DNA from: an uncultured Planctomycetales bacterium
GTDB taxonomy: Bacteria > Omnitrophota > Gorgyraeia > Zapsychrales > JBDRMG01
Reading direction: 5' to 3'
DNA length: 52,931 bases
NCBI GenBank assembly: GCA_964478715.1
Contig: CAYZIY010000012.1
Location: 1-52,931 of the forward strand
The position numbers were made by a program, and so were the translations under genes. Positions within the stretch are counted from its first letter, which is position 1; each line of letters starts with the position of its first letter. The notes beneath the pieces are model-generated. The model ran no database searches and was not told the origin of the DNA. It was given only the letters and a program-made list of their open reading frames with translations. Shown here in pieces: positions 724 through 46,724 of the stretch.

Positions 724-1123
724 ACCCCATGGTTCGGCGTGTAAAAAGCCCCTCTTAAGAGGGGCTTTTTACGTGCTCACCAGAGCCCTGAGCTCTTGCA
801 GTGAGCGGAGTCGAACTGTGTCGAAGGGTGTGATATAATTCCTTTTATGTGGCATGTCTATATTTTAGAATGTAAGGATAAGACTCTTTATACTGGCGTC
901 ACAAATGATATTTGTCGACGAGTAAAAGAGCACAATGATAAGAAAGGGTGCAATTATACCAGAAGCCGCACGCCTATTAAACTAATCTTCCAAGAATCCT
1001 GCCCGAGCATGTCATCTGCATTAAAACGTGAAGCCCAGATTAAAAAATGGAGCAAGTCCAAGAAGTTATCGCTGATTCACGGAGATCTTCAAGGTTTGAT
1101 AAAGTTAGCCAAATCCCGAGAGT
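724..1123 (+). repeat. left copy of 400-bp direct repeat (terminator + GIY-YIG gene)
   Basis: Base-by-base comparison by eye with 46325-46724 (offset 45,601) found no mismatch. Identity starts at ACCCCATGG and ends at the first base of the GIY-YIG stop codon. Confidence 0.9.
743..770. terminator. bidirectional intrinsic terminator hairpin
   Basis: AAAAAGCCCCTCTTAAGAGGGGCTTTTT is a perfect palindrome with an A-run on one side and a T-run on the other. Confidence 0.7.
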
Positions 1124-1125
1124 AA
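847..1125 (+). CDS. GIY-YIG nuclease family protein (URI-domain, ~92 aa)
   Basis: WHVYILECKDKTLYTGVTNDICRRVKEHN is the GIY-YIG motif plus the conserved Arg/Glu region. A duplicate lies at 46448-46729. Confidence 0.85.
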   Translation: MWHVYILECKDKTLYTGVTNDICRRVKEHNDKKGCNYTRSRTPIKLIFQESCPSMSSALKREAQIKKWSKSKKLSLIHGDLQGLIKLAKSRE

Positions 1126-1326
1126 TTGCCCCAAAATGGCCCAAATACTCTCGAATCGTCGGACTCTCACTTTTGGGGTTGTAGTTGACCCATTCGACTA
1201 TGCTCAGGGTCAACCCTGAGCTATTAATCTTGGGCTGTCGAAGGGTTGACAATTTCCTGGCTTCTAGTAAGACTCTCTGATTGTCGCAAGAAAGGTTGTC
1301 AGTAAAAATGGTAAGCGGGTGAGTAA

Positions 1327-1379
1327 TTTGTGAATAAATAATATTCGGTTTGTGAATAAATAAATTGCGATTTGTGAAT
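1327..1379 (+). promoter_or_regulatory. three phased direct repeats TTTGTGAAT(AAATAA) upstream of the AAA+ ATPase gene
   Basis: Copies start at 1327, 1349 and 1371, an exact 22-bp spacing. They lie immediately upstream of the RBS GGAGGTG (1401-1407) and the ATG at 1413. Confidence 0.35.
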
Positions 1380-1412
1380 TCGCATGGTATCCTATCTTCA
1401 GGAGGTGAAGAT

Positions 1413-2633
1413 ATGGGGTATGTTGCAAGACATATTGAATCAAGACTTAAAGAGGCATTAAGTATTCATCCCGTAGTCATTTTATCCGGTCCCCGGCAGG
1501 TTGGCAAAAGCACTCTTCTTCAGAATGCTGCCTGTTTAAAAGGATGGCATTATATGACTCTGGATGATCCAATCTTGCTTGAACAGTCTAAAGAAGATCC
1601 CAAGGGGCTTCTTTTTGATGATGCGCCTGTGATCATTGATGAGGTGCAACGATGCCCGGATCTTTTGGTAACGGTCAAATATTATGTTGACCAATCAAAA
1701 AGAAAACGTCGTTTTATACTTTCGGGTTCTGGAAATGTCTCCTTGAGAGGATCTCCCAGAGAAACGTTGGCAGGAAGAGCAAAGTATCTTCATTTAACGG
1801 GATTTTCTTTTGCTGAAATTCAAAAGCGTAAAGATCATCAATTATTGGATAGGCTTGTGTCGAATAAAGAGATTTCTACTGGTATGACAGCGGCCAATGC
1901 ATCTTTCATTGAATCAGCATGGAAGGGTGGTTTGCCTGAGATCGTTTTGGCATCAAAACCGCAGGTTGTATCCGAGCTTATGGGTGGATATGTTGATACA
2001 TATATTGAACGCGATATCCAGGATTTGGTCAAGGTAAGGTATCCACAGAATTTTCGTCGTTTGATGCAGGCTTTAGCAAAAGCAACAGGCTGGGAAAGCA
2101 ACCAGGACGAATTAGCAAAGATGTGTGGAGAAACTAGGAGCAATGTAAGTCGGCATGTCAGCCTTCTTAAGAATACTCAGCTCTTATATGAATTGAGAGG
2201 ATTTGTGGCGCGAGGGGAAAGAGCGTATAAACAGGCAAAATATTTTTGGTTTGATTCAGGTGTTGCTTGTTTTATGGCAGGCATTTCCTCAGACAAGGAC
2301 CTTAAAAAAGAAAATTTAAAAGGCAGATTTTTGGAAAACTTTATTTTCCAGCAAATTCTAGCTTGGGCTTCTTTGCAACAGATTCAACCTGAAATCTATT
2401 ATTGGAAATCAAAACAAACTAATACTGAAGTGGATTTTATCATTAAACATAAGGATGCTGTATTGCCGGTTGAAGTCAAATCGGGAGATAGTCTGGATTT
2501 TAGAGACACCCGTTCGGTTCGAGAATTTTTGAAGCGGCATCCTGATGTTCCATCTGGGGCCATCATTTATACAGGGAAGAAGGTTTATCCCGTAGCCAGC
2601 AATGTCTGGGCTGTTCCCTGGCAATTGTTGTAG
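1413..2633 (+). CDS. AAA+ ATPase, AAA_14/DUF4143-type
   Basis: Walker A is GPRQVGKSTLL and Walker B-like is VIIDEVQ. The C-terminal half has the PD-(D/E)xK-like EVDFII...PVEVK segment typical of DUF4143 proteins. ATG 1413 is preferred over the TTG at 1365 because of the RBS. Confidence 0.85.
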   Translation: MGYVARHIESRLKEALSIHPVVILSGPRQVGKSTLLQNAACLKGWHYMTLDDPILLEQSKEDPKGLLFDDAPVIIDEVQRCPDLLVTVKYYVDQSKRKRRFILSGSGNVSLRGSPRETLAGRAKYLHLTGFSFAEIQKRKDHQLLDRLVSNKEISTGMTAANASFIESAWKGGLPEIVLASKPQVVSELMGGYVDTYIERDIQDLVKVRYPQNFRRLMQALAKATGWESNQDELAKMCGETRSNVSRHVSLLKNTQLLYELRGFVARGERAYKQAKYFWFDSGVACFMAGISSDKDLKKENLKGRFLENFIFQQILAWASLQQIQPEIYYWKSKQTNTEVDFIIKHKDAVLPVEVKSGDSLDFRDTRSVREFLKRHPDVPSGAIIYTGKKVYPVASNVWAVPWQLL

Positions 2634-2654
2634 TATATCAGGGGGCCTGATATA
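2634..2654 (+). terminator. hairpin immediately after the ATPase stop codon
   Basis: TATATCAGG-GGG-CCTGATATA forms a 9-bp stem. There is no clear U-tract. Confidence 0.35.
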
Positions 2655-2687
2655 CGCATAATTCTATAATGTTGAGATGATTTAACC

Positions 2688-2714
2688 GGGGTTCAAATCC
2701 CGTCAGCGACCCCA
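2688..2714 (+). other. tRNA 3'-end fragment (T-loop + 3' acceptor strand + CCA); likely att scar
   Basis: GGGGTTCAAATCCCGTCAGCGACCCCA reads as a TTCAAAT T-loop, a 5-nt T-stem strand, a 7-nt acceptor strand, a discriminator and CCA. No matching 5' half lies upstream. Confidence 0.4.
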
Positions 2715-2813
2715 GTTGTTACTCCCACGCGAACCGGCGCACTTCCGTGCCACAGTTCGAGTGGGAGTTTTTCTTTATCTACAGACGATCCTACCGATTT
2801 TTCTGCACAGGAA

Positions 2814-3320
2814 ATGCTCGAATATCTGGACTACATCCAAAGATGCTCAAGAATCTGCCCAAGAACTTACTGGTGCGAGTTCCCATACTACACAGTCATA
2901 AACGGCCAAAAACAACACTTCCGCCTAGGCTACCGCCCCCAAGACCTCGCAGACATCGAAACCATTGAACAGAAGACATGGAAAAAGCACATCGCCCACC
3001 TAAACCGCCTCGAAAATTTCCCGCTGGACAAAGCCGAATACTATCTGCGTCTCAAAGAAGCGCACGGCGTGAGTTCTGTCAGAAGCCTATCAAAAATCAC
3101 AGGCGAAGACTGGTCATACATAGCCAAAGTACTCAGGACGATTGATCTAGCCGAGCCAGTAAAAGAATACCTGCGGGAAAACAAAGAAAACCATGCGGTG
3201 ATTAGATTTTTTAACCTCAAAAGACTCGTAGACATCGTAAAGCAAGGAGAAGAAAGGTTTCAATTGAGATGTTTCAGGGAATTCTTGGAGATATTGGAGT
3301 CTTCAAAATATAATTATTGA
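2814..3320 (+). CDS. hypothetical protein with ParB/KorB-like HTH segment
   Basis: SVRSLSKITGEDWSYIAKVLRTIDLAEPVKEYL resembles the ParB HTH followed by the 'LP..v.e.l' region. The start codon is uncertain, and the 5' part lies in a visibly GC-richer patch. Confidence 0.45.
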   Translation: MLEYLDYIQRCSRICPRTYWCEFPYYTVINGQKQHFRLGYRPQDLADIETIEQKTWKKHIAHLNRLENFPLDKAEYYLRLKEAHGVSSVRSLSKITGEDWSYIAKVLRTIDLAEPVKEYLRENKENHAVIRFFNLKRLVDIVKQGEERFQLRCFREFLEILESSKYNY

Positions 3321-3679: not shown

Positions 3680-3687
3680 GGGTAAAA

Positions 3688-7083: not shown

Positions 7084-9408
7084 GTGGATCAAATATTAGA
7101 TAACAGAAAAAAAGGTAAAGTTGGAGATACGTTAAACGATCTTATCGTAGCAGGATCAAAACTGTCGTTCATTTCTTCATGCTTTACAATATATGCTTTT
7201 CAGGAGCTTAAAAATACGCTTAAAAGATGTGATAAACTTCGCTTCCTTTTCATTGAGCCTACCTTTATACGCAACAAACCATCAGAATCAAGAGAATATT
7301 ATATCGGTCGTTCAGAGAGGGAGAAAAGTCTTTCTGGCAGTGAATTTGAATTGAGACTTAAGAATGATTTGAATCAGTCCAGCATTGCCCGGGAATGCGC
7401 GGCATGGGTTAAGGAAAAGACTGAAATGCGATCTCTCGTGGATTCAAGTGTTGCATCAGTAAAAATTTATCACGGTGAGGATTCCAACGGAGAGCAGTTC
7501 GCGATTCAAGGCAATTCAGATTTTACCGCTGAGGGACTTGGGTTTACTCCTGCAACAAAACGAAACGTAAATACGCTTACAAAAAATCAAGAAACGACAC
7601 AAGGGCTATTGTCTTTTTTTGATGAGATATGGGATAACGATGAGCTTGTTGAAGATGTGAAAGATGAAGTTCTGTCTCGCATTTTAAGCCTCTATAAAGA
7701 AAACCCGCCAGAGTTCATGTATTTCGTCACGCTTTATAATATCTTTAAAGATTATTTAGAGAACCTCGACGAAGAAAGCATTATAAAATCTCGGACAGGT
7801 TTTAAAAATACACTTGTTTGGAACAAGCTTTATAAATTTCAGAAAGACGGCGTGCTGGGAGCAATCGACAAGCTGGAACGCTATAACGGTTGCATAATCG
7901 CCGATAGTGTAGGTCTTGGTAAAACGTTTGAAGCATTGGCTGTTATCAAATACTACGAATTACGAAATCACCGTGTACTCGTTTTATGTCCGAAAAAACT
8001 ACGGGAAAACTGGACAGTTTATACCATCAACGATAAGCGCAATACTTTAGCAGATGATCGTTTTGGATATGATGTTCTTAACCACACTGATTTAAGCCGA
8101 TATACAGGGGCTTCAGGTGAAATCAATCTTGAGACTTTAAATTGGAGCAACTACGACCTTATCGTTATTGATGAGTCGCATAATTTTAGAAACAACGATC
8201 CACGCAAAGACAGAGAGACACGTTACAGCCGTTTAATGAACCAGATCATCAAGCAGGGAGTTAAAACGAAAGTACTTATGCTTTCGGCAACGCCTGTAAA
8301 TAACCGCATGATGGATCTTAAAAATCAGGTGTTCTTTATTACGGAAGGAAACGATACAGCTTTTGATGATGATGGCATTTCCAGTATTGAGCAAACACTT
8401 AAGAAAGCGCAAACAATTTTTAATAGATGGACTGCATTACCTGAAGAAAAACGTACACTTGATAGCTTTTTGAATATGGTCAATTTTGATTATTTTAAAT
8501 TACTCGATACGATTACTATTGCCCGCTCAAGAAAACACATCGAGAAATATTACAATATTGCGGAAGTTGGAAAATTCCCGGATCGACTTAAGCCTATTAA
8601 TGTGAAGTCGGATATTGACCTGCAATCTGAATTCCCACCTTTAGAAGAGGTTAACAAAACTATCAGGCGGTTAACATTAGGCGCATATTCTCCTCTTAAA
8701 TATGTGCGGATGGATAAGCAGGAAGAATACAGTGAAAAATATGACATGGAAGTGCAGGGGGGAAGGTCGCGTTTCAGGCAGATAGATCGTGAAACGAGCT
8801 TGATTCATCTTATGCGTGTAAATCTTTTAAAGCGTATGGAAAGCTCAATATTTTCTTTTGGGATCACGGTGAATAATGTCCTTTCACAAATCAACGTGTT
8901 GCTTGAGAAAATCGAAAAAGGAGATTCTTTTATAGATGAATCTTTGGATATTCGGGATGTGAATATTGAGGATGACGAATTGCAGGACAAGCTGATCGGC
9001 AATAAAGTTAAAGTTCTCTTGCAGGATATTGATGTTGTGCGATGGAAGCAGGATTTAGAATATGACAAATCATTGTTGGAACAATTACTTGATGAATCTG
9101 AAAAAGTCTCTGCTAAAAGAGACGCAAAATTGGAAGACCTCAAGCGATTAATTAGTCGTAAGATGCAGTCTCCAATAAACAGGGATAATAAGAAAATTTT
9201 AATTTTTTCTGCCTTTGCTGATACCGCACAATATCTTTATGATAATTTGGCAGAGTGGGCAAAGAATGAATTTAATCTTTATTCCGCGCTTGTCACAGGT
9301 TCAGGCAGCAATAAGACAACCCTTCCAATAAAACAAAAAGATTTAGGTGCGATTCTTTCCTATTTTTCTCCGATATCCAAAGAAAAAAAATACCATATAT
9401 CCCGATGA
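7084..9408 (+). CDS. SNF2-family helicase, N-terminal fragment (frameshifted gene)
   Basis: SNF2 motifs are present: I (ADSVGLGKTFEALA), II (VIDESHNFRN) and III (MLSATPVNN). GTG start. The reading frame is lost at the A8 run 9383-9390. Confidence 0.85.
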   Translation: MDQILDNRKKGKVGDTLNDLIVAGSKLSFISSCFTIYAFQELKNTLKRCDKLRFLFIEPTFIRNKPSESREYYIGRSEREKSLSGSEFELRLKNDLNQSSIARECAAWVKEKTEMRSLVDSSVASVKIYHGEDSNGEQFAIQGNSDFTAEGLGFTPATKRNVNTLTKNQETTQGLLSFFDEIWDNDELVEDVKDEVLSRILSLYKENPPEFMYFVTLYNIFKDYLENLDEESIIKSRTGFKNTLVWNKLYKFQKDGVLGAIDKLERYNGCIIADSVGLGKTFEALAVIKYYELRNHRVLVLCPKKLRENWTVYTINDKRNTLADDRFGYDVLNHTDLSRYTGASGEINLETLNWSNYDLIVIDESHNFRNNDPRKDRETRYSRLMNQIIKQGVKTKVLMLSATPVNNRMMDLKNQVFFITEGNDTAFDDDGISSIEQTLKKAQTIFNRWTALPEEKRTLDSFLNMVNFDYFKLLDTITIARSRKHIEKYYNIAEVGKFPDRLKPINVKSDIDLQSEFPPLEEVNKTIRRLTLGAYSPLKYVRMDKQEEYSEKYDMEVQGGRSRFRQIDRETSLIHLMRVNLLKRMESSIFSFGITVNNVLSQINVLLEKIEKGDSFIDESLDIRDVNIEDDELQDKLIGNKVKVLLQDIDVVRWKQDLEYDKSLLEQLLDESEKVSAKRDAKLEDLKRLISRKMQSPINRDNKKILIFSAFADTAQYLYDNLAEWAKNEFNLYSALVTGSGSNKTTLPIKQKDLGAILSYFSPISKEKKYHISR

Positions 9409-10324
9409 TGGATTATCAATTGATATTCTTATCGGGACAGACTGTATTTCCGAAGGGCAAAATCTTCAAGATTGCGATTATGTTGTTAATTATGATATTC
9501 ATTGGAATCCGGTTCGAATTATTCAGCGTTTTGGAAGAATTGATCGTATAGGATCACGCAATGAATTAGTCCAGTTAGTTAATTTTTGGCCTAATTTAGA
9601 ACTTGATGAATATATCAATCTTGAAGCAAGAGTGACGGGACGTATGGTTCTTTTAGATGTATCCGCTACAGGCGAAGAAAATATTATTGATACGGAAAAA
9701 CAGAGCATGAATGATTTGGAATATCGCCGGAATCAGCTGAAACAGTTGCAAGAAGAAGTGGTAGATTTGGAAGAAATGTCTGGCGGTGTTTCTATTACAG
9801 ACCTTACGTTTAATGATTTCCGTATGGACTTAATTGAATATATGCGCATCAATAAAGAAGCCCTTGAGAAAGCCGCCTGTGGGATGTATGCGATAGCCCG
9901 AAGTGACAACAAGGATGATATTCCTGAGGGTGTCGTATTCTGTTTAAGGCATATTACAAGAGGGCGTGTTCCTGATGAGCATAACGCATTTTATCCGTAT
10001 TATTTGGTTTATGCAAAAAAGGATGGATTAATTTTACACTCATTTTTAGCGACAAAGAAAATATTGGATTTATATAAAAAGCTTTGCCTTGGGCACTCAG
10101 AAGTATTGGTTGATCTGGTTGACGCGTTTAATCAAAAAACAGATGATGGAAGAAAGATGCACAATTTTTCAGGACTGTTAGAGCATGCAATAACCAATAT
10201 TATTGGGAAAAAAGATGAAAAGGGCGTCGAGAGTCTTTTTTCAAAAGGGGGAACAACATTGTTGGATAATTCCTATCAGGGAAAAGATGATTTTGAGCTG
10301 ATATCTTTTTTAATCATTAAGTAG
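9347..10324 (+). CDS. SNF2-family helicase, C-terminal fragment (frameshifted gene; true coding continuation begins near 9384)
   Basis: Helicase C-terminal motifs IV-VI are present: ILIGTDCISEGQNLQDCDYVVNYDIHWNPVRIIQRFGRIDRIGS. Confidence 0.85.
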   Translation: MRFFPIFLRYPKKKNTIYPDDGLSIDILIGTDCISEGQNLQDCDYVVNYDIHWNPVRIIQRFGRIDRIGSRNELVQLVNFWPNLELDEYINLEARVTGRMVLLDVSATGEENIIDTEKQSMNDLEYRRNQLKQLQEEVVDLEEMSGGVSITDLTFNDFRMDLIEYMRINKEALEKAACGMYAIARSDNKDDIPEGVVFCLRHITRGRVPDEHNAFYPYYLVYAKKDGLILHSFLATKKILDLYKKLCLGHSEVLVDLVDAFNQKTDDGRKMHNFSGLLEHAITNIIGKKDEKGVESLFSKGGTTLLDNSYQGKDDFELISFLIIK

Positions 10325-19905: not shown

Positions 19906-20646
19906 ATGTGTAAATATAAAGAATTATATGATATTTCTGTGCAGGTTCTTGGTGAAGAACAGCAGCGATTCAACCGAATGGATGAAAAAGCAGTTAAATA
20001 TTTTTCTGTTATTTCGTTCTTGATTGGGGTTTGCGTTTTTTTTGGCAAACAGTTAATAGCAGATAACATTCCACCTGCTAATTATTCTGAGTGGACGATT
20101 TTAATTTTTGGAAGTGTTTCTTTTTTGTCTCTATTTCTTGCATGGATATTTTGTTTTCTGGCGATTAAGCAACACGTTATAGAAAAAATGCCTTTAAATG
20201 ATGATATGATAAAATTTTTTCATGAAAACCGTTTGATCGATATTCACTATGCACTAACCAAGGCTAATAAAAAAGCACTAGCTATTAACCGAAAGAAGAC
20301 GGACAAGAAATCAAAGTTGTTAGCTAATGCGTATCGATCTATCCTAGTTTCAGTAATTACGTTAGTGTTTTTTGTGATTTTATGGAGCGGTTCTAAATGG
20401 CATAACGCTTATGAAAGTAAATTTATTAGTAAAGGAGATTGTATAATGACCGAAGAAAAAAAAGAAGAACAGAAACCCAAAGAAGATGTAGTCGCTCCTA
20501 ATTATGATCGACTAACAGCAAACGATCAAAAACCCAAAGAAGATGTGGTGGCTCCAAATTATGATCAAATTACTGAGGGGTATGATCCTGTAACGAAAAA
20601 AAATATCGAGAAGGGCGTCATTGATAAGAATGATACTTCTAAGTAG
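19906..20646 (+). CDS. three-pass membrane protein (SLATT/Pycsar-effector-like topology, tentative) with a 13-aa motif repeated twice near the C-terminus (19-aa period)
   Basis: An N-terminal amphipathic helix ending RMDEKAVKYF is followed by hydrophobic segments (VISFLIGVCVFF, ILIFGSVSFLSLFLAWIFCFLAI, ILVSVITLVFFVILW). QKPKEDVVAPNYD occurs twice. Confidence 0.55.
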   Translation: MCKYKELYDISVQVLGEEQQRFNRMDEKAVKYFSVISFLIGVCVFFGKQLIADNIPPANYSEWTILIFGSVSFLSLFLAWIFCFLAIKQHVIEKMPLNDDMIKFFHENRLIDIHYALTKANKKALAINRKKTDKKSKLLANAYRSILVSVITLVFFVILWSGSKWHNAYESKFISKGDCIMTEEKKEEQKPKEDVVAPNYDRLTANDQKPKEDVVAPNYDQITEGYDPVTKKNIEKGVIDKNDTSK

Positions 20647-20689
20647 TTTTGTTGGCAACATCATTTAAAATTTAGTAGAGGATAATGTC

Positions 20690-21316
20690 ATGAAACAATT
20701 TAGTTTTTATGAATTTTCTGGAATATTGTTGCCGGGAACAGTTATTTTATATGGATTGATTATTGCATTTCCTGATATGAAAGAATCAATTCTAGGGTTG
20801 GATGTTACAGTTGGTGATTTAGGAATATTTGTTCTTCTTGCGTATATTTGTGGACATATTGTTCAGGCGATAGGGAATTTTTTAGAGAATATATGGTGGA
20901 TGCGTAATGGGATGCCAACAGATTGGATTCGAACGAATAAAAAAGAATTGATATCCAGTCAGCAGAGACAAATTTTAATGGATAAAGTTCGCAACCAATT
21001 AGTCAAATCACCCAGCTTTGATATAGAAAAAATTAACAAGAAAGAATGGTATAGTATTGTGCGACAAGTTTATGCTGTCATAGAGGTGGCAGAACGGTCA
21101 AAAAGAGCCGATATCTTTAATGGTAATTATGGCTTAAATAGAGGGCTATCTGCTGCGTTCTTTGCATTGACTTTATTATCTCTGTTTTTAAATTTAGCCT
21201 ATTGGAAAGCTTCATTGTTATTGTTTGTTGTTGGATTAATTTGTATCTATCGAATGAATCGCTTTGCTAAGCATTATGCAAGAGAATTATTTGTGCAGTA
21301 TTTGTCTATAGATTAA
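20690..21316 (+). CDS. four-pass membrane protein, unknown function
   Basis: Hydrophobic segments are ILLPGTVILYGLIIAF, LGIFVLLAYICGHIV, AAFFALTLLSLFLNLAY and LLLFVVGLICIY. The gene is co-directional, with a 43-bp gap upstream and a 16-bp gap downstream. Confidence 0.55.
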   Translation: MKQFSFYEFSGILLPGTVILYGLIIAFPDMKESILGLDVTVGDLGIFVLLAYICGHIVQAIGNFLENIWWMRNGMPTDWIRTNKKELISSQQRQILMDKVRNQLVKSPSFDIEKINKKEWYSIVRQVYAVIEVAERSKRADIFNGNYGLNRGLSAAFFALTLLSLFLNLAYWKASLLLFVVGLICIYRMNRFAKHYARELFVQYLSID

Positions 21317-21332
21317 ATGGGAGGAAAATATT

Positions 21333-22403
21333 ATGAGCAATGTAGCTAAAAAAATTATAATCCCTTCTACTAAAATGCTTCGTATTATTTTTTTATACGT
21401 TGGTCAGGGTGATGCAACTTTAGTTGTTATTCCTGATGGGGATGAATATAAGTATATGTTGGTAGATTCTCATTTGGATGAGACTTGTGGAGGGATTGAT
21501 CTGATTAAGATGATGGAAGATTTATTTGATGGTGAAAAAGATGTGGGCATAGATATTTATTGTAATACGCATCCTCATAAAGATCATCTGGGAAAAGTAA
21601 AAGAGATCTATGAAAATAAAAAAATTGGAATTAAAGAAGTGTGGCACTCAGGACATAAGCCCGGCAAAGATCATGAGGATGCATATAAAGATTTGAAATA
21701 TGTTATGGATAAAATTGGCGATGAAAATGTTTATGTTTTGAAAGGAAGTAATGACGAAGATAAATTGAATGATAAAAAATATAAATTGGGAGATATTCAT
21801 TACAATATATTAGCTCCTGCGGAATATGTTGCTGATGATATTGAGGATGAAAAACCAAAGGATCGTTACAATAGGATACACGAACAATGTGGAGTAATAC
21901 GTTTGAAATATGGAAAAGAGGAAAAACAGATATTGATTACCGGTGATGCAGATTACGATGCATGGTCAAAGCATATAACAGAGTATCATAAAGAAAGATT
22001 GCCCTCTTTTGTTTTAAGCGCTGCTCATCATGGCTCAAATTCATTCTTTTGGAAGGGCGACCCTAAAGATGAAGATCCGTATAAAGCTCATTTAGATCAA
22101 ATTGACCCTTCTCATGTTGTCGTTTCTGCTCCGAAAAGAAAAGAAAGTCCTCATGGGCATCCAGATAAAGAAGCTATGGAATTATATAAAGAAAAGGTGG
22201 GTGAGGATAAGTTGCATCATTTGGGAGATAAACGAGAATGTGTGATTGTTGATATAAAAGAAGATGGTGACATTGAAGTTTATTTTGATGATGAATTGGG
22301 TGAAGAGTACGGTTTTGGCAAGAAAAAGAATGAAAACGGCAATGAAGATAAGAGGATTTACACAGGAGTTGTTACGAAAGTTGATAAAAAACCAATGGGG
22401 TAA
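21333..22403 (+). CDS. metallo-beta-lactamase-fold hydrolase (ComEC/Rec2-like MBL domain), C-terminal Gly
   Basis: LYVGQGDATLV, HPHKDH (HxHxDH), TGDADYD and AAHHGS are present. The protein ends ...KKPMG-stop. Confidence 0.85.
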   Translation: MSNVAKKIIIPSTKMLRIIFLYVGQGDATLVVIPDGDEYKYMLVDSHLDETCGGIDLIKMMEDLFDGEKDVGIDIYCNTHPHKDHLGKVKEIYENKKIGIKEVWHSGHKPGKDHEDAYKDLKYVMDKIGDENVYVLKGSNDEDKLNDKKYKLGDIHYNILAPAEYVADDIEDEKPKDRYNRIHEQCGVIRLKYGKEEKQILITGDADYDAWSKHITEYHKERLPSFVLSAAHHGSNSFFWKGDPKDEDPYKAHLDQIDPSHVVVSAPKRKESPHGHPDKEAMELYKEKVGEDKLHHLGDKRECVIVDIKEDGDIEVYFDDELGEEYGFGKKKNENGNEDKRIYTGVVTKVDKKPMG

Positions 22404-22405
22404 AA

Positions 22406-24781
22406 ATGAGCTGGTTTTCTAAACATCCAAACTGGCTCTACTCGGAGTCGATAGAGTTATCAAACAATTCTATATATAAAGAATCGTATCAATATATTGA
22501 TCGGTGTCTCGTTTCCGCAGGAAATATTATTCTTCATAAAGAGAAAACAGCGTACTTCCCAATATTAATTGCTTATCCTGATGCAACGCCTTATCTCCCA
22601 CCTATTGTATTTATCTTAGAGACACTTCCTAGTGATTCAGAGGTAAAAGAATTATCAAAAGTCTCAACAGAAGTGATATCAAAGAGTTTGTCCAAGAAGG
22701 CAAGATATTTTAATAGACGCCATCAAAATGAAGATGGGAGTGTTTGTTTTATTGAAACGAGTGATTTACATGGAGGAAATGCAGAAGTCTTTTCTATAAA
22801 AGACATTTTAAAAAGAATTCGTATTTGGTTGGCAGGAAGAATCCCAAAAGATAGTCGAGAAGTGGAATTGTTTTATCATTTTAGACGGCGATGTTATGAA
22901 ATTCAGTATTTGTTGCCAGATTTATTTTTTGATGAAGATATTGTGAAAGGGATATTTTATGCTGGATTATCTACAATTATGCCAGCAAATTATTTTGGAA
23001 AAAATAAATTAAAAAAGACGTATGTTGGAGTCTTAATATCTGGTTCCAATCAAGGTGGCATTGAAATTTCGCCTAAAATTTACACTCAAGAAAATTTTGT
23101 ACTTTTTGCGCATATCCCCAATCCAAAGAAAATTGAGCAATTTTTAAGTGGGGCAAAGGACGATAAATTTAAAGAAGATATTGGTAGGGGGAATGTTCTT
23201 TTGGGCTATTGGTGGGACATAAATAAAGAACCAGAACCATTTTCTTCGATCAGTGAACTAGCAAAATATATCGGAGCAGGAGATGAGAATAAAGGAATTG
23301 CCGATTTAATTCATGCCTTGAAAGGGGAACTAAGAAGTTTGCCTGATACCATAAACATTGGCTTAAGATTTCCTGGACGCTTTCAAAACAAAGATTGGCA
23401 AATGTTAAGACTTGAAAAAGGAACACGGTCTATTTTGTTTATAGATAGTGATGAAGAATTAAAAGAAAGGCTTTCGGATTACTCGATAAGCTCTGTTTAT
23501 CAAGAGTATATTACAGAGCCATATTATCACAAAAGAAACATAGGAAGAGCGAACAGAGACGTTTTGAAGCCAGCCAAAGTAGTTTTGATTGGTTGTGGCG
23601 CATTAGGTTCTGAGGTGTCTGATTGTTTATGTAAAGCTGGGATTGGAAATCTAATGCTTGTTGATAAAGAAAGCCTTAATGCACATAACTGTATTAGGCA
23701 CTGCATTGGATTAAATCGAGTAACCTTTCCGAAAGTTTTGGCAATGGCTGAACATTTAGCTTTACATAATCCTTTTGTAAATTTAGAACTTAAAGGCTGT
23801 GATATTTTAAGAAATAATTTGAACGAATATTTTCCTAATGGATTTATGGCTGTTTCTACAATTGCTGATGATAACACAGAATCTTATTTAAACGAAAAAG
23901 CTATTGAAGCAAATAAAACTGTATTTTATGCAAGAGCTTTGCGAGGAGGGAAGGCAGCACGAATATTTCGGGTGAAACCAAGAGAGGATGCCTGTAAAAA
24001 TTGTTTAGCTCTTTATCTGAAGGATGGTGGCGATTTATGTATAAATATTCAAGAGGATGAAAGTTTACCAATTATTACTAATGAATGTAATAATCCTGTC
24101 CGTCCTGCAAGCGCATCTGATCTTAAATTGATTGCTGCAATTGCTTCTCGAATTGTTATTGACTATTTACAAGGTGTTGGGAGTGATAAGAATCACTGGA
24201 TATTAAGTACTGAACAGTTAGAAGGAATTAAATTTTATGATAAAACATGGGGGATAGTTCAATCAGAATATTTGCCCCCACATCCAAAATGTTGTGTATG
24301 CCAAAATATAAGCGAAAAAAAGGTGTTTATTGCAAAAATTGCATATGAATTAATGAAGAGAGAGGTACAGGCGGCTGATGATCTTGAGACGGGTGGAGTA
24401 TTAATCGGATATATTACCGAGAACGGAGAGTTTGTTATTACGGTAGCTACAGAACCCGGTTCAAAAGCAATAAAAGAGGCATCGTTATTCTTAAAGGATG
24501 AGGAATTTACTCAACAACAGTTAGAAGAAGCTTTTAAAACATTCGGTGATAAAGGATTATATCTAGGAGAATGGCATTATCATCCTAGAGGAGCTTATGC
24601 TCCAAGTGGTACAGATATTAAATCATTAACTCAGATTGCTAAACAAGATTCATATCGCACGGATACGCCGTTATTAATAATCCTTTCTTCGGATTGTGAA
24701 TTTGGTCTTACTATTCACGATCAAAATGGCAGCTGTGTTAAATTGCCGTTAGAAGTAATCGAAACTTCTATCTCAGACTAA
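22406..24781 (+). CDS. E2(UBC-like)-E1(ThiF/MoeB-like)-JAB(JAMM) triple-domain fusion protein
   Basis: E2-like region is YPDATPYLPPIVFIL ... HQNEDGSVCF. E1 region is VVLIGCGALGSEV plus CKNC and CCVC. JAMM region is LETGGVLIGY ... HYHPRGAYAPSGTD (HxHx7Sx2D). Confidence 0.85.
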   Translation: MSWFSKHPNWLYSESIELSNNSIYKESYQYIDRCLVSAGNIILHKEKTAYFPILIAYPDATPYLPPIVFILETLPSDSEVKELSKVSTEVISKSLSKKARYFNRRHQNEDGSVCFIETSDLHGGNAEVFSIKDILKRIRIWLAGRIPKDSREVELFYHFRRRCYEIQYLLPDLFFDEDIVKGIFYAGLSTIMPANYFGKNKLKKTYVGVLISGSNQGGIEISPKIYTQENFVLFAHIPNPKKIEQFLSGAKDDKFKEDIGRGNVLLGYWWDINKEPEPFSSISELAKYIGAGDENKGIADLIHALKGELRSLPDTINIGLRFPGRFQNKDWQMLRLEKGTRSILFIDSDEELKERLSDYSISSVYQEYITEPYYHKRNIGRANRDVLKPAKVVLIGCGALGSEVSDCLCKAGIGNLMLVDKESLNAHNCIRHCIGLNRVTFPKVLAMAEHLALHNPFVNLELKGCDILRNNLNEYFPNGFMAVSTIADDNTESYLNEKAIEANKTVFYARALRGGKAARIFRVKPREDACKNCLALYLKDGGDLCINIQEDESLPIITNECNNPVRPASASDLKLIAAIASRIVIDYLQGVGSDKNHWILSTEQLEGIKFYDKTWGIVQSEYLPPHPKCCVCQNISEKKVFIAKIAYELMKREVQAADDLETGGVLIGYITENGEFVITVATEPGSKAIKEASLFLKDEEFTQQQLEEAFKTFGDKGLYLGEWHYHPRGAYAPSGTDIKSLTQIAKQDSYRTDTPLLIILSSDCEFGLTIHDQNGSCVKLPLEVIETSISD

Positions 24782-25040
24782 TCGTAGTCTGAATGCTTTT
24801 TCCCTCATCAGTCAATTCATAAATCCTCCCACGTTTATCCGCTGGATTAATGCATTTTGCAAGACCTTTCTTTGTAAGAAGACGTAGCACATCGCTGGTG
24901 CTGTTTAAACTTATTTTAGGATTGATTTCCTTTGCTTTCTTGAGTGTCTGCGTCGGGGTCATAGGATGTGTTAAAACACGCACAACGGCGGTTCTTTGCG
25001 ATCCGCTGACAACCCAAACATAAAGGTCAAGATTCACCAT
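24768..25040 (-). CDS. winged-helix (MarR/ArsR-like) transcriptional regulator
   Basis: PTQTLKKAKEINPKISLNSTSDVLRLLTKKGLAKCINPADKRGRIYELTDEG is an HTH plus wing. The start is uncertain (25040, 25052 or 25172). The short form places a conserved promoter motif upstream. Confidence 0.6.
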   Translation of the reverse strand: MVNLDLYVWVVSGSQRTAVVRVLTHPMTPTQTLKKAKEINPKISLNSTSDVLRLLTKKGLAKCINPADKRGRIYELTDEGKSIQTTISLR

Positions 25041-25075
25041 CTTTTTTAGCATAATGCTTAAATCATGCTTAAATA

Positions 25076-25094
25076 TTTTACACTGAAATAATAC
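25076..25094 (-). promoter_or_regulatory. conserved element-specific promoter/operator motif, copy 1
   Basis: The plus-strand text is TTTTACACTGAAATAATAC. It lies ~36 nt upstream of the wHTH start at 25040. Minus-strand reading is TTATTTCAGTGTAAAATATTT. Confidence 0.5.
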
Positions 25095-25552
25095 AGATTG
25101 ATTTAGTGATTTAACTATCTTATGCAAATATTTTGATAAAAAATGAGACAATCTGGATAAAAAAACAGACATTGTCAGTGTTTTTTCTGTGTAAAGTTAA
25201 TAAATGACGGCGTTACTACTTTGTGTCAGATACACAATGGATGAATACATGCTTTATAAAGAGGAGAAACGCTTGTGCGAGAAATACGGGGCGTCTTCGC
25301 TAAAAGAAGTTCTGCAAATTCAGAAGGATATGATCAGGGATCATTATCAGAAAGCATATACCAGACAATATCAATAAATTCGATTTCTATCGAAAGATTT
25401 TTAAATAGTATTCAAACTTCAGATAATAAATCGAATGCGAAAGGGATGTAGCCTTCGCCTTCAGGTAGGGGGGCTATGGGGTAGCAGGGGTACTTCAAGG
25501 CGAAAGCTATATATACGAGCATAGCTTTATGACTCAAAGAGGTGCTTGAGCT

Positions 25553-26821
25553 ATGGCAAAAAATGATATCTATAACAGTAAACGGCAGTATGAGTCTATT
25601 GTCCGAAAGATTGAAAATTCGGTTTATTTGAAGCCGGATAAGAAAACGCAATACTATGTGAAGAATCCCGCCAATCTTCGATATTTTAAGCAACTGGTTA
25701 AAGAATTTACATTCAAAGATATTTCTTATATACGTAGGATTCAGTTTATCAAAGCGTTGCGCAAAACGTGTTTTGCAACTGAAAAAGATTTGAAAGATGT
25801 CACCCGTGAAGAGGTAAAAGATATTGTGGCTCAATTTCATGGTATTCACCGCACACCAATAACACGCCGGGATTTCATTAACTATAATAAAGCCATCTGG
25901 AAGGTTATCTTGCCTGAGAAAGATTATAAAGGACGGGTTGACGATACGATAACGCCATACGCGTGGAGGATATCGTCGTATTCTGATAAAAGCACGCAGA
26001 AAGATAAGGCAGACAAATTAACGCATGAAGAATATTTAAAAATATTGAACAGTTTGAATAAAGATCCTCGAATTCAGCTCTATTATTCTCTTATGTTTGA
26101 GTGCTTAGCCCGTCCCCAAGAGCTTTGCTATGTCGATATCAAGGATGTTGACGTGCGGGACAATTACGCGCGGATAAGGATTAAAGAATATGGGAAGGAG
26201 GGAACAAAAACACTTCAGGTAATCGACAGTTATTTTTATTTAACGGAATGGCTTAATAAACATCCTCTCAAACATGATCCTGATGCGCCGCTTTTTTTAT
26301 CAATAGGAAATAACAACAGGCATGCCAGATTGACGCCTAAACACGCGAATAAAATATTGCGAAACAAGCTAAAAGAGTTAGGCATCAATAAGCCAATTAC
26401 AAATTATTCTTTTAAACGAAACGGTGTCACGGTTAGGTATTTATCAGGCGAGCCTGCGCAGAATATTCAAAAAATCGCTGGGTGGACGTCTACAGATCAG
26501 TTGCGAACGTATGACCTTTCAGGGCAAGAGGATTTCTTAAATGAAGAATTGGTTCGCAAGGGAATTGCAAAGGCTGACGGTAAAGACAAGAAGCGCTTTT
26601 TGTCTTTTAAGAATTGTATGTTCTGTAATACGGTTAACCCTATTACTAACGAATTGTGCAGTCATTGTAAAAGGCCTCTGAACAGGGAAAAGATACTTGC
26701 AGAAGAGAAGAAAAAGAATGAGGAAATTGCAGCGATCAAGGAAAAGATGAATCAGATGAATGAGATGATGGAGTCTTTAATGCTTGAGAAAGTAAATGAT
26801 AGGTTGAAGGAAAATAGCTAA
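25553..26821 (+). CDS. tyrosine site-specific recombinase/integrase with C-terminal zinc ribbon and coiled coil
   Basis: Box I Arg lies in ECLARPQELCYVDIKDV. Box II-like region is YSFKRNGVTVRY...IAGWTSTDQLRTYD (Trp in place of His-II as in Cre, plus a terminal Tyr). A CMFC...CSHC zinc ribbon is present. Confidence 0.75.
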   Translation: MAKNDIYNSKRQYESIVRKIENSVYLKPDKKTQYYVKNPANLRYFKQLVKEFTFKDISYIRRIQFIKALRKTCFATEKDLKDVTREEVKDIVAQFHGIHRTPITRRDFINYNKAIWKVILPEKDYKGRVDDTITPYAWRISSYSDKSTQKDKADKLTHEEYLKILNSLNKDPRIQLYYSLMFECLARPQELCYVDIKDVDVRDNYARIRIKEYGKEGTKTLQVIDSYFYLTEWLNKHPLKHDPDAPLFLSIGNNNRHARLTPKHANKILRNKLKELGINKPITNYSFKRNGVTVRYLSGEPAQNIQKIAGWTSTDQLRTYDLSGQEDFLNEELVRKGIAKADGKDKKRFLSFKNCMFCNTVNPITNELCSHCKRPLNREKILAEEKKKNEEIAAIKEKMNQMNEMMESLMLEKVNDRLKENS

Positions 26822-43186: not shown

Positions 43187-43188
43187 CG

Positions 43189-43575: not shown

Positions 43576-44214
43576 TTGACCCATAAACTAAGCGTATTAG
43601 AACTTTTTTCTGGAACGCAGATGATAACAGATGCTTTCAGAAAGCAAGGGCACAACGTGTTTTCAGTAGACAACAACAAAAGTCTTAGTCCAGACTTATG
43701 CGCAGACATAAGCCAATTACAGCTAAGCGACATCCCGTTTCATCCTCATGTCATTTGGGCAAGTCCGCCATGCACATGTTTCAGTGTGGCGAGCATAAAT
43801 AAACACTGGAAAAACGGCGAAGCAAGCAAAGAAGCAAAAGACTCGACACGGTTAGTGGCGAAAACTTTTGAAATAATAATGCTATCACGGCCTGTATTCT
43901 GGTTTATAGAGAATCCACGTGGCATGATGAGAAAATTGCCGATACTTGATGCTCTGGCGAAAAACACAGTGACATACTGCCAGTATGGCGACACGAGAAT
44001 GAAACCAACAGACATATGGACAAACTGTACAGCATGGAGGCCTAAACCGCCATGCAAATGTGGCGACCTGTGTCATGACGCATCCCCAAGGGGAAGCAGA
44101 ACAGGCACTCAAGGATTAAAAAACGCAGTAGAAAGAAGCCGAGTCCCAACAATGCTATGCCAAGAAATAGTAAACATATGTGAACAATTAATAACCCCCA
44201 ATAAAAAACAATGA
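43576..44214 (+). CDS. compact DNA cytosine-5 methyltransferase-like protein (212 aa)
   Basis: Motif I-like is LELFSGT. Motif IV is ASPPCTCFS (PC catalytic Cys). Motif VI is FIENPRG. Motif VIII-like is YCQYGDTRMKPT. Motif X-like is RSRVPTMLCQEIV. TTG start. Confidence 0.6.
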   Translation: MTHKLSVLELFSGTQMITDAFRKQGHNVFSVDNNKSLSPDLCADISQLQLSDIPFHPHVIWASPPCTCFSVASINKHWKNGEASKEAKDSTRLVAKTFEIIMLSRPVFWFIENPRGMMRKLPILDALAKNTVTYCQYGDTRMKPTDIWTNCTAWRPKPPCKCGDLCHDASPRGSRTGTQGLKNAVERSRVPTMLCQEIVNICEQLITPNKKQ

Positions 44215-44441
44215 GAAATCAGAATCAGCGAAAGAATAAAAAAAGGGTTTGCGGAAAGGTAATCCGGCATTTCTTTGTCGAGATTGCAGACGCCAGCTCT
44301 GACTCTGCGCTGTATTCTAATTCAAGCAATCCTTATGTTCAGATGACGGAAGAGGAAAGGCTTCGGGATTTTATTGAGATGTTTGGGGTTTTGTGGGCGG
44401 AGTCTTGCAGAGAGGCTCAGGAAAAAAATGATTCCATTTAA
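44211..44441 (+). CDS. hypothetical protein
   Basis: 76-aa ORF with an ATGA overlap with the methyltransferase-like gene. Confidence 0.35.
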   Translation: MRNQNQRKNKKRVCGKVIRHFFVEIADASSDSALYSNSSNPYVQMTEEERLRDFIEMFGVLWAESCREAQEKNDSI

Positions 44442-44488
44442 AAGAAAATTTGCTATAATGTTACTCGTGCGAAACAGGAGAGAACATT

Positions 44489-46345
44489 ATGGCTAAGAAA
44501 TCTAGAAGTTGGAAGCAGGTCACAACAATTCATAGTTTCAAGGATTCCAGAGTCGTCCGTGTCTTTGGCATTGCTCGTGTCTCCACCGATAAGCAGGCAA
44601 GGAAGGTTGGGGAGTCTTTGGATCATCAGAAGGAAGTGCTTGAAAATTGGGTTAGGGCAAAGTCTAGTCTTCATGCTCCGCAGGATTGGAAGCTTGTTGA
44701 CGTGTTTGTCGAAAATGAAGATGCAGATGGGAAGCGGAAGGGGCGTACTGCAACGAAGCGAGATGGAAGAAAGGGGCTTTCTAAGGCATTGGAGCTTGCG
44801 CGACTTGGGATGATTGATGTTGTTTTGGTTACTAAGCTTGACCGTCTTGCTAGAAACGTTGCTGATTACATCGATATCTCTGCTGAGTTTAACGAAAATG
44901 ACGTTGCTCTGGTCTGTCTTGATTTGGATATCGACGCTTCTACCCCCGACGGGCAAATGGTCATGAGGCAACACGCCAATTTAGCCCAGTGGCAAGCAGA
45001 ACGCATCGCTCAATACAGTATGGAGACTGTGAAGAGGCATGTTGAGCAAGGCAGGCCAATCGGCCCCCCACCTGTTGGTTACAGAAAGGCAAAGGATTCC
45101 AATGGCAAGACTACCTTTGAACCAGACCCCACATATAAAAAGCATGTTGCTTTTATTGATAAGACTTACCTTCGACTCAAAAGTGTTGATAAAGTCATAA
45201 AGGCACTTCACAAAAAGGGCTATAAATCTCCAAAGGGAAAAACGTATTCTAAGCCCCAAGTTTCACGAATTCTTCAAAATGTCAGATATCTTGGCAAACA
45301 GGAGCATGATGGAAAAGTTTGCGATGGCAATTGGGAGGCGATTAGGACTTCAACAGATTATAAGATTATTCAGAAAATTTTAGGAATGAACAGGAAGAGC
45401 CGTCACAGCGTAAATTGTGAAAGTCCAAAATACGTATATTTAGCGCAAAGCATTCTTAAGTGTAGCGTGTGCGGTTCAAGTATGATCGCAAGACCAGCAA
45501 CAGGCAGAGGCGGAAAGTATTATCCTTATTACCTGTGCCTTAAGGCGCACCAGACGAACGGCATTGATTGTGAACGGATATATCTGTCAGCAGAAGCCGT
45601 TGATGAGGCAATCATTGAGATACTTAGGCACTTACGGTTGGACTCTAAGGTTGTTTCAAAGATTGTTAAGGGCGCAAATGAAGCAACGGCATCCACGTTA
45701 GTTGTTCTTGAAGGAGACTTGGACAGAGTTCAGGAAAGCCTTAAAGATGTACGCACAAAAATCTCTAACCTAGTGGATGTTCTTGCAGGAGGAGGGATGT
45801 CCTCTGTGAGCGCTGTCAGAGATAAGCTTGAGGCATTGAATCAGGAAGAACAGGAATTATCTCATGAAGAAAACAGACTGAAGCAGGAAATTGAGTCAGA
45901 AAAGGTTCAGGCAGGAACAGCCCACGAATACATTAAAGCTCTTCAACTTTTCAACGATTTTTATGAGATGAACAAGGAGAAGAAAGAGCGCATAAAAGTC
46001 CTTATACCCCGCCTAATCAATTCAGTTATCTGCGAAATCACCGACAAAAAGAGAGGGATCGGAAAGCTCAAAATAGGACTCTTTGGAAGACCTTTTGATC
46101 GGGGGCATAACGCAGGCGTCTGGAATGAAGTGTTGAAAAAGATAGCCGATGAATGTTATAATAATAAACTTCTTAAGAATTTGGAAGGAAAGATAGCCTC
46201 AAAACCTCAGACAAAAAGTAGGAAGAAGTCAAAGGCAGTAGCCTGTAAAATGAGCAGAGGCTCGTTGGCAACTTGTATTGACAAACGTTTTTACAATAGC
46301 GGTTCGCACGGAATAACCCCTGCGACCCCATGGTTCGGCGTGTAA
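44489..46345 (+). CDS. large serine recombinase (resolvase domain + recombinase domain + zinc ribbon + coiled coil)
   Basis: VFGIARVSTDKQ carries the catalytic Ser. Other elements are VLVTKLDRLARN, the zinc ribbon CSVCGSSM...YYPYYLC and a coiled coil. The last 7 codons and the stop lie inside the right direct repeat. Confidence 0.9.
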   Translation: MAKKSRSWKQVTTIHSFKDSRVVRVFGIARVSTDKQARKVGESLDHQKEVLENWVRAKSSLHAPQDWKLVDVFVENEDADGKRKGRTATKRDGRKGLSKALELARLGMIDVVLVTKLDRLARNVADYIDISAEFNENDVALVCLDLDIDASTPDGQMVMRQHANLAQWQAERIAQYSMETVKRHVEQGRPIGPPPVGYRKAKDSNGKTTFEPDPTYKKHVAFIDKTYLRLKSVDKVIKALHKKGYKSPKGKTYSKPQVSRILQNVRYLGKQEHDGKVCDGNWEAIRTSTDYKIIQKILGMNRKSRHSVNCESPKYVYLAQSILKCSVCGSSMIARPATGRGGKYYPYYLCLKAHQTNGIDCERIYLSAEAVDEAIIEILRHLRLDSKVVSKIVKGANEATASTLVVLEGDLDRVQESLKDVRTKISNLVDVLAGGGMSSVSAVRDKLEALNQEEQELSHEENRLKQEIESEKVQAGTAHEYIKALQLFNDFYEMNKEKKERIKVLIPRLINSVICEITDKKRGIGKLKIGLFGRPFDRGHNAGVWNEVLKKIADECYNNKLLKNLEGKIASKPQTKSRKKSKAVACKMSRGSLATCIDKRFYNSGSHGITPATPWFGV

Positions 46346-46724
46346 AAAGCCCCTCTTAAGAGGGGCTTTTTACGTGCTCACCAGAGCCCTGAGCTCTTGC
46401 AGTGAGCGGAGTCGAACTGTGTCGAAGGGTGTGATATAATTCCTTTTATGTGGCATGTCTATATTTTAGAATGTAAGGATAAGACTCTTTATACTGGCGT
46501 CACAAATGATATTTGTCGACGAGTAAAAGAGCACAATGATAAGAAAGGGTGCAATTATACCAGAAGCCGCACGCCTATTAAACTAATCTTCCAAGAATCC
46601 TGCCCGAGCATGTCATCTGCATTAAAACGTGAAGCCCAGATTAAAAAATGGAGCAAGTCCAAGAAGTTATCGCTGATTCACGGAGATCTTCAAGGTTTGA
46701 TAAAGTTAGCCAAATCCCGAGAGT
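46325..46724 (+). repeat. right copy of 400-bp direct repeat
   Basis: Identical by eye to 724-1123. Confidence 0.9.
46344..46371. terminator. bidirectional intrinsic terminator hairpin (repeat copy)
   Basis: The same AAAAAGCCCCTCTTAAGAGGGGCTTTTT sequence. It begins at the last two bases of the serine recombinase stop codon (46343-46345). Confidence 0.7.

Follow-up and report, generated by a model that had tools for sequence, protein, structure and literature searches.

What sets the ends of the accessory DNA in contig CAYZIY010000012.1 (GenBank assembly GCA_964478715.1), a 52,931-nt stretch from an uncultured Planctomycetales bacterium that GTDB places in the Omnitrophota? This whole stretch is called the window here. 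Two perfect 400-bp direct repeats, each carrying a very small GIY-YIG nuclease gene, bracket most of the window, and an earlier note took them for the ends of a 45.6-kb insertion. The proposed attachment sites of a large serine recombinase (LSR) place the ends elsewhere, with cores at 2706-2714 and 46322-46330 that delimit 43.6 kb. The island is probably an LSR element of ~43.6 kb (~2711-46326), with 2683-2740 as attL and 46296-46346 as attR on the sequence evidence given below. In the history that we favor, and judge likely on balance, small GIY-YIG cassettes linked to tRNA genes first formed an array, and this site-specific island later inserted into it, so that the repeats are the island's neighbors and not its ends. 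Long perfect repeats are easily mistaken for island ends, and here the recombinase sites give 43.6 kb rather than 45.6 kb.

The left copy (R-left, 724-1123, forward strand) and the right copy (R-right, 46325-46724, forward strand) match at 400 of 400 positions in direct orientation, and the identity extends 0 further bases on either side of both copies. This bears out the perfect identity and abrupt divergence described in the earlier note, along with its observation that the identity stops at base 1 of the GIY-YIG stop codon, which leaves proteins ending SRE* (92 aa) on the left and SREF* (93 aa) on the right. R-left opens with ACCCCA, a tRNA-like 3' terminus, and continues with a perfect 32-nt palindromic terminator (741-772; 46342-46373 in R-right), a CCCTGAGC...GTCGAAGGG stem (786-828), the -10-like box GATATAAT and the GIY-YIG reading frame (847-1125; 46448-46729 in R-right). 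The product matches Pfam PF01541 over residues 1-73 (E = 1.8e-20). Exact-protein look-ups with both forms of the GIY-YIG protein matched no record, and an Rfam scan for an RNA gene under the repeat returned no family at gathering score and only terminator look-alikes at a relaxed threshold. The flanks are designated A (left of R-left), B (right of R-left), C (left of R-right) and D (right of R-right). Alignment of flank A with flank C did not rise above shuffled sequences, and the idea that flank A preserves a decayed LSR 3' end was rejected on this ground.

The right end of the element is marked by the LSR gene (44489-46345, forward strand). Its 618-aa product has the Resolvase (PF00239), Recombinase (PF07508) and Zn_ribbon_recom (PF13408) domains, an ARVSTDKQ serine motif is visible at its N terminus, and it matches the XisF and CcrB models partially, below their cut-offs. 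The reading frame runs 21 nt into R-right, which supplies its last 7 codons including the stop at 46343-46345 (TPWFGV*; 6 codons and the stop). The collected LSR homologues (n = 85; 55-75% identity among full-length relatives) have C-terminal peptides that disagree (…GITPATPWFGV, …FAGGNSCDP…, …VRTGEHVGPQ…) and that prove to be different-frame translations of one DNA sequence. In 11 fetched homologue loci the motif GTTCGCAnnGGnnAAn7GACCC(C)A is kept, and the sequence diverges right after it. A matrix built from these 11 loci scores the copy in the window at 32.9 bits. Four loci (L077, L079, L082 and L089) are 84-90% identical upstream of the motif and have nothing in common after GACCC(C). A conserved DNA motif followed by abrupt divergence after GACCC(C) indicates the edge of mobile DNA, which falls at 46322-46330 in the window. 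The proposed attR (46296-46346, forward strand) therefore consists of the P arm GGTTCGCACGGAATAACCCCTG, the core GCGACCCCA at 46322-46330 and a B' arm formed by the first bases of R-right, its target-side flank. The core lies inside the last codons of the LSR gene, so the recombinase is encoded within a few hundred bp of the element end, and the core overlaps the first 6 nt of R-right. The earlier note remarked that 400 bp far exceeds the att cores expected for serine recombinases, and the 9-bp core agrees with this. A GIY-YIG gene is absent from all 14 loci with LSR homologues, so the cassette is not part of the element family. No true tRNA genes were found next to the LSR homologues.

The left end was located with the same core. 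GCGACCCCA recurs in the same orientation at 2706-2714, the only site in the window where the core is followed by GCGAAC at the right spacing. The proposed attL (2683-2740, forward strand) has GGTTC at 2690-2694 as a B-type half-site, the core at 2706-2714 and a P' arm ending GCGAACC (2729-2735). The 26 nt after the left core, reverse-complemented, read GCCGGTTCGCGTGGGAGTAACAACTG, and the P arm reads AGCGGTTCGCACGGAATAACCCCTG; P and reverse-complemented P' match at ~20 of 25 positions. When the window was searched with the predicted palindrome, attL scored highest among the non-self matches. Joining P to P' reconstructs an attP of the form GTTC-N41-GAAC, equivalently TTCGC-N37-GCGAA, with the junction sequence CCCCTGCGACCCCAGTTGTTACTCC (longer form CCCCTGCGACCCCAGTTGTTACTCCCACGCGAACC); the corresponding attB junction reads CCCGTCAGCGACCCCATGGTTCGG (longer form ATCCCGTCAGCGACCCCATGGTTCGGCGTG). 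Two homologous loci (L078 and L080) hold intact P-core-P' sites with the N41 spacing of the reconstructed attP. The spacing is N36 in attL (GTTC-N36-GAAC) and N36 in attR, where the B' motif is weak. The left GGTTC of attL is thus exactly 5 bp nearer the core than its counterpart in attP. Attachment sites of the attB type in serine integrases have half-sites with the distal motif shifted 5 bp toward the center (Rutherford et al., PMC3783163), and the 5-bp shift of the attL left half-site fits what is expected of an attL. The two sites together have a common short core, inverted P and P' arms and the 5-bp half-site shift. GC content falls from 42% to 34-37% just right of ~2.7-3 kb, which fits a left end at this position.

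A degenerate tRNA-Arg(TCT)-like sequence (2627-2714, forward strand) with the terminus GGGGTTCAAATCCCGTCAGCGACCCCA makes up the B arm of attL. ARAGORN called it at the 80% threshold only; the whole window at default settings gave 0 tRNA or tmRNA calls, and no Rfam family was called in any part of it. Rfam found nothing in it beyond a 13-nt match to a tmRNA T-loop (E = 0.55), and no repeat of its 25-mer was found. An attL at 2683-2740 leaves 1124-2710, which comprises a DUF4143/AAA_14 ATPase gene (1413-2633, forward strand; identified with Pfam) and the tRNA-like remnant, between the repeats and outside the LSR element. The ATPase gene has 42% GC, like the flanks. The view in the earlier note that everything between the repeats looks accessory holds for the LSR, transfer, anti-restriction and defense genes; 1124-2710 looks chromosomal.

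Joining the att halves gives the order that the chromosome would have had before the island arrived: hexapeptide gene, cassette R, DUF4143 ATPase, degenerate tRNA-like sequence, cassette R, Fic and NikR, with the two cassettes 1585 nt apart. In this scheme attB would have spanned the junction between the tRNA-like sequence and the second cassette, taking in the end of the former and the start of the latter, and it would have recombined with the attP of a ~43.6-kb LSR element to give attL (~2683-2740) and attR (~46296-46346) with GCGACCCCA common to both. The LSR presumably catalyzed this integration, and the sites are assigned from sequence evidence. The cassette opens with the tRNA-like terminus ACCCCA, and these bases are part of the LSR core; this is why R-right starts within the core of attR.

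Several observations weigh against this reading. The attL match is modest taken alone, and an equal alignment score was reached in 2 of 20 shuffled windows. The B' arm at the start of the repeat has only a weak half-site motif, and the tRNA-like sequence is detected only at the relaxed threshold. No empty attB and no free attP of this element was found in a genome collection that lacks the host and any close relative of it, and the nearest left-flank relative (73% protein identity) lacks the locus. The linkage of the flanks across the 400-bp repeat is that given by the contig's assembler, and duplication or conversion as the cause of the perfect identity is something that we infer. Finally, an internal palindrome matches the inverted P arm better than attL does.

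This palindrome, S2 (25450-25508), is 59 bp long and lies 45 nt upstream of a tyrosine recombinase gene (25553-26821). Its outer arms are symmetric at 17 of 19 positions, and its DNA fold has z = -3.35. If S2 were the true left end of the LSR element, the mobile unit would be 20.9 kb (~25477-46330) and 1124-25476 would be a separate resident defense island between the cassettes; the predicted junction of such a circle is GCGACCCCAT joined to GGGGTAGCAGGGG (full form CTGCGACCCCATGGGGTAGCAGGGG). The right arm of S2 is the best inverted P-arm match in the window (27 of 35 positions; score 36-38 against a background of 11.8 ± 2.5), S2 is also the best non-self match of a matrix built only from homologues, and GC content rises from ~35% to ~40% near 26-27 kb. 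Conservation and spacing point the other way. The S2 arms and the two genes to their left (24768-25172 and a small reading frame at 25240-25378) are kept in the homologous elements L093-L095, where the cargo further left is unrelated, and this places S2 inside the backbone. The S2 spacing, TTCGC-N41-GCGAA, is the same in L093 (9898-9956), a 67%-identical homologous element, and is 4 nt longer than the N37 of attP, not 5 shorter as expected of an attL. If S2 served as P', a distance of 23-29 nt would separate the conserved GTTCGCA motif from the center, beyond the half-site reach of serine integrases (PMC3783163). S2 was set aside as attL on its conservation in the homologous backbone and its spacing, and we regard the 20.9-kb unit as improbable. 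S2 could be a site for a recombinase or a regulator.

With the ends of the LSR element placed at 2683-2740 and 46296-46346, the repeats themselves call for an explanation. One that the earlier note raised is Campbell-type integration, in which a 45.6-kb circle carrying one 400-bp cassette would have entered by a RecA-dependent crossover with a chromosomal copy. The repeats are perfect (400/400), direct and placed around all the accessory DNA; a single crossover anywhere in R would yield exactly the observed product, a dispersed cassette family could sit on both replicons, and the assembly graph fits a free form equally well. Such a circle would have to hold both attL and attR, which means an LSR element already inserted in a 2-kb piece consisting of a cassette, an ATPase gene and a tRNA-like end without replication or transfer genes. 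The attL lies 1.6 kb inward of the left repeat, and none of the 14 LSR-homologue loci carries a cassette. The origin of flank B was examined in L008, a locus from a metagenome-assembled genome (MAG) whose isolate name contains SRP141376. L008 holds a 5'-truncated cassette copy at 87% nucleotide identity, followed by the 3' flank of the left copy including its loop and 12-mer; in our reading of the alignment 31 of 33 nt match, and the alignment runs through to window position 1156. The stop codon of the L008 cassette gene lies ~215 nt before NikR, in a region of 83.6% nucleotide identity around NikR, with no Fic gene between. A cassette with a B-type flank beside NikR suggests that flank B is chromosomal and not island DNA, and the recurrence of these 33 nt after a chromosomal cassette argues against their arrival on a circle. 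On this evidence Campbell-type integration is unlikely.

An assembly-path artifact would account for the same contig. The chromosome would then read A-R-D and a separate 45.6-kb circle would read C-R-B, the two having been threaded together by the assembler. The 400-bp repeat is probably longer than the short reads. Logan assemblies of two runs (SRR7048227 and SRR7048228) contain separate contigs for flanks A, B, C and D, each stopping exactly 30 nt inside the repeat, from which it follows that all four repeat/flank junctions exist in the reads. The contigs of both runs break at all four R edges, and the k = 31 de Bruijn graph fits both resolutions: A-R-B...C-R-D, the order in the contig, looks the same to it as an A-R-D chromosome with a separate C-R-B circle. 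Most homologues of the two recombinases, LSR and tyrosine, lie on short contigs binned to very different lineages, as is seen with extrachromosomal DNA. Set against this, the artifactual circle would also carry attL and attR internally, tandem cassettes 0.4-4 kb apart are the norm in relatives on contigs that run through them, and the window was assembled as a single 52.9-kb contig, presumably with pairing information. We give the artifact little probability. A separate observation from these data is that Logan contigs of the two runs (L006 and L007) terminate at the same window position, 2776. These stops imply that another sample sequence joins at 2747 (2747-2776), inside the hairpin after attL, and neither the attP nor the attB form accounts for this join.

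The remaining explanation, that the repeats are paired chromosomal cassettes beside the island, was examined in relatives of the GIY-YIG protein. A genome scan with the protein found relatives in the Omnitrophota, Planctomycetota, Patescibacteria and other phyla. Upstream of 30 of 64 related GIY-YIG genes (loci L009-L072), a tRNA or tmRNA gene on the same strand ends no more than 400 nt away, compared to an expectation of ~0.04 per gene (~2.6/64). The tRNA-linked cassettes in relatives have the order CCA, terminator hairpin, CCTGAG...CGAAGG stem, -10 box and gene, and R has the same order; beside its cassettes the window carries only degenerate tRNA-like ends. At 8 loci at least two copies lie within a few kb of each other (spacings 0.4-4 kb), and the contigs run through them. 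L014 has a tRNA-Lys gene with a cassette and, after 0.93 kb, a tRNA 3' fragment with a second cassette, the two repeats being 454 nt long, 86% identical and starting in the T arm. The same tandem pattern occurs at a tRNA-Asn gene in L058. The repeat is most likely a tRNA-linked small nuclease cassette that normally sits behind tRNA genes. Among the three explanations offered in the earlier note, two dispersed GIY-YIG cassettes bracketing the island by chance comes closest. The repeats are indeed cassette copies, but chance does not describe their arrangement: they are tRNA-linked and often tandem, and their left edge is the integration site.

The boundaries of the identity were inspected for the origin of the perfect match. 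The sole stretch common to flanks B and D is the 12-mer ACTCTCGAATCG (1146-1157 and 46759-46770), which starts 23 nt past the repeat on the left and 34 nt past it on the right. In the left copy it completes a stem-loop (1117-1157, forward strand; DNA fold -9.4 kcal/mol, z = -4.05) whose 5' arm, CGAGAGT, is the final 7 nt of the repeat and whose 23-nt loop and 3' arm, ACTCTCG, lie outside it, the arm within the 12-mer. The corresponding right stem-loop (46718-46770, forward strand) has a 34-nt loop with a minimal CCCTGAGCCTGTCGAAGGG motif ahead of the 12-mer. The stem arms span the repeat edge and the 12-mer, so the two copies differ in the loop and not at a random point. As read from the sequence, identity ends on both sides where homology runs out, at unrelated flanks on the left and at loops of 23 and 34 nt on the right, past which comes the 12-mer as an older shared sequence. 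These boundaries match what gene conversion between paralogous cassettes would leave. The perfect 400-bp identity would come from a duplication of recent date or from gene conversion with heterology as its limit on either side; in place of conversion, one loop could have been replaced after a very recent duplication. Breaks made by the GIY-YIG nuclease could perhaps have driven either event. SegB, a GIY-YIG nuclease encoded beside phage tRNA genes, drives tandem segmental duplication via homologous recombination (PMC13096335), and nuclease-stimulated duplication or conversion by the 92-aa protein is plausible by analogy. The analogy has a limit: the 92-aa protein has one Pfam domain, matched no NCBIfam model and has no recognizable C-terminal DNA-binding module.

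A broader proposal follows the same lines. The 92-aa GIY-YIG genes would supply the activity of minimal mobile cassettes that form a widespread and apparently undescribed class (terminator, CCTGAG...CGAAGG stem and nuclease) that home just past tRNA and tmRNA genes in the Omnitrophota, Planctomycetota, Patescibacteria and others. Their breaks would lead to tandem duplications that trap cargo and create or preserve att sites for larger elements such as the LSR island, and the 400-bp repeat would be a fresh product of this activity and not a passive paralogue. We hold this as a tentative idea that is doubtful as it stands. A full-text literature search found no account of tRNA-linked GIY-YIG cassettes in bacterial chromosomes. 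Very small GIY-YIG genes tied to the 3' flanks of tRNA and tmRNA genes across several phyla may explain why mobile DNA accumulates there. The repeats also make the whole region, island included, one that ordinary RecA-type homologous recombination between them could delete.

The locus was compared to known systems. Elements and prophages bounded by LSR att sites (A118/LI, phiC31, Bxb1, Tn5397 TndX and SCC Ccr) likewise have a three-domain LSR at one end, a short common core, inverted P and P' arms and an attB-type half-site 5 bp nearer the center. The defense and anti-restriction cargo, the Replic_Relax relaxase-like gene and the coupling-type ATPases are also like those of LSR integrative elements. 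Unlike known LSR elements, attP here overlaps the 3' end of the LSR gene, whose last residues are supplied across the site, so that integrated and excised forms would encode different C termini. The proposed target also differs, being the junction of a tRNA-like remnant and a GIY-YIG cassette, and the middle of the element holds another recombinase, of the tyrosine type, next to a conserved palindrome of its own. The proposed sites provide a testable attP/attB pair for an uncharacterized LSR clade of uncultured bacteria, and such pairs are raw material for integrase tools.

The F plasmid forms Hfr strains by homologous recombination via copies of IS2, IS3 or gamma-delta. The present locus resembles an F/Hfr fusion: tens of kb of inserted DNA are bounded by identical direct repeats, each of them a small genetic unit complete in itself, and recombination between the repeats would remove the block. 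It differs in its site-specific junctions, in the 1.6-kb chromosomal-looking stretch inside the repeats and in a repeat that is not a transposase-bearing IS. SegB of T-even phages (PMC13096335) shares with the cassettes a GIY-YIG gene by tRNA genes and tandem duplication of tRNA and nuclease. Unlike SegB, the protein here has 92 aa and a catalytic domain only, is encoded on a bacterial chromosome with a terminator and conserved stem upstream, and has only a putative role in cleavage or homing. Islands are known to accrete in tandem at tRNA 3' ends, as in the ICE/CIME arrays of streptococci and the tandem integration of SGI1 (PMC5704250, PMC2297512). Partial tRNA 3' ends are repeated in the same way between successive modules at one hotspot here. 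Unlike in ICE/CIME and SGI1, the repeats reach 400-450 bp past the tRNA end and include a whole gene, and the small modules between them have no integrase.

The element (2711-46326, forward strand) divides into cargo at ~2.8-24.8 kb (34-37% GC) and a backbone at 24.8-46.3 kb. The cargo consists, in order, of HigB and HigA-ImmA, a PD-Lambda-2-like beta protein with an sce7726-family protein, a split HKD/SNF2 helicase, DUF4391, a TrlF-family ATPase, type III Mod and Res, and a 6A-MBL-like pair. The backbone encodes, in order, the tyrosine recombinase, RadC, DUF2958, ArdA, a DUF87/TrwB-like ATPase, DUF6876, an ArdC-N-like protein, Replic_Relax, a C5 methylase and the LSR. It is syntenic with L093-L095, whose cargo differs (type I restriction-modification, SIR2-HerA and an RNase H-like gene). 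We read the island as an LSR-type integrative element that is probably mobilizable. The only tyrosine recombinase gene (25553-26821) lies mid-element, and an exact-protein look-up found no record of its product. A tyrosine-integrase island in a tRNA gene was considered and rejected on this mid-element position, the lack of an intact tRNA gene and the unrepeated tRNA-like 25-mer. The defense helicase of HKD/SNF2 type occupies two overlapping frames (7084-9408 and 9347-10324), with the helicase C-terminal domain in the second; a frameshift, decay into a pseudogene or an error in sequencing could each account for the split. The genes at 19906-24781 encode two predicted membrane proteins, an MBL-fold protein and a 791-aa fusion of ThiF (E1) and JAB with an N-terminal region that is putatively E2-like, and they match the models of the anti-phage 6A-MBL system weakly, below cut-offs.

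Further observations concern the recombinases. In the reconstructed excised form (44489-46326 joined to 2711-3320), the LSR frame stays open through the site into an HTH_ParB-like reading frame (2814-3320) to give an 815-aa product. This fusion frame may be due to chance, the homologues being at most 686 aa long; if it is real, integrated and free forms would encode different proteins. L079 (7719-9389) and L086 (8353-9357) each have another, different LSR gene on the minus strand that runs toward the first, and the 3' ends overlap at the conserved P/core motif, which suggests tail-to-tail elements or a shared site. Comparison of L084 with L085 was tried as a clean crossover marker and weakened, the L084 flank being an IS30-like transposase and both flanks having a TTTTTCGC...GCGAA hairpin. 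Viral contigs scanned for the LSR, for the tyrosine recombinase and for the attP pattern gave no match. Inverted copies of the P arm were sought within the homologue loci and none rose above background, including in L096, where the element looks ~10 kb long. Close homologues of both recombinases (P0122, P0215, P0219, P0242 and P0306) have source names from MAGs of DPANN archaea and Omnitrophota, which makes the host range of the element family, or the binning, uncertain.

The genes outside the repeats look chromosomal, as the earlier note had it. Flank A carries a hexapeptide/gamma-carbonic-anhydrase-like gene (36-575, forward strand), the homologues of which are named carbonate dehydratase. 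L005 and two Omnitrophota MAG loci (L073 and L074) preserve the gene order DUF4914, AAA_26/DRTGG and hexapeptide protein. A metagenome scan with the left-flank protein gave no match, and its nearest relatives, the closest being 73% identical in protein, lack the locus. Flank D (47002-51053, forward strand) encodes Fic (47002-48012), NikR (48373-48768) and a TonB-dependent receptor (48984-51053), as identified with Pfam on Logan contigs, and a CooC-like ATPase also lies in the right flank; the NikR and cassette of L008 support its chromosomal character. The Fic gene with its flanks (46771-48321, ~1.55 kb) is absent in L008, where 132 unrelated bases (2686-2817) lie between the cassette and the NikR promoter, and Fic may be a separate small insertion. 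L008 also contains an IS66-like end, a DUF4143 ATPase 34% identical to that of the window and a SEC-C protein, and these differences indicate that the region was rearranged between relatives. Upstream of the DUF4143 ATPase gene in the window are three copies of TTGTGAATAAATAA and GGTTGTC repeats (1327-1380). The same motifs, TTGTGAATAAATAA among them, lie upstream of the L008 paralogue (250-300), which suggests a shared operator.

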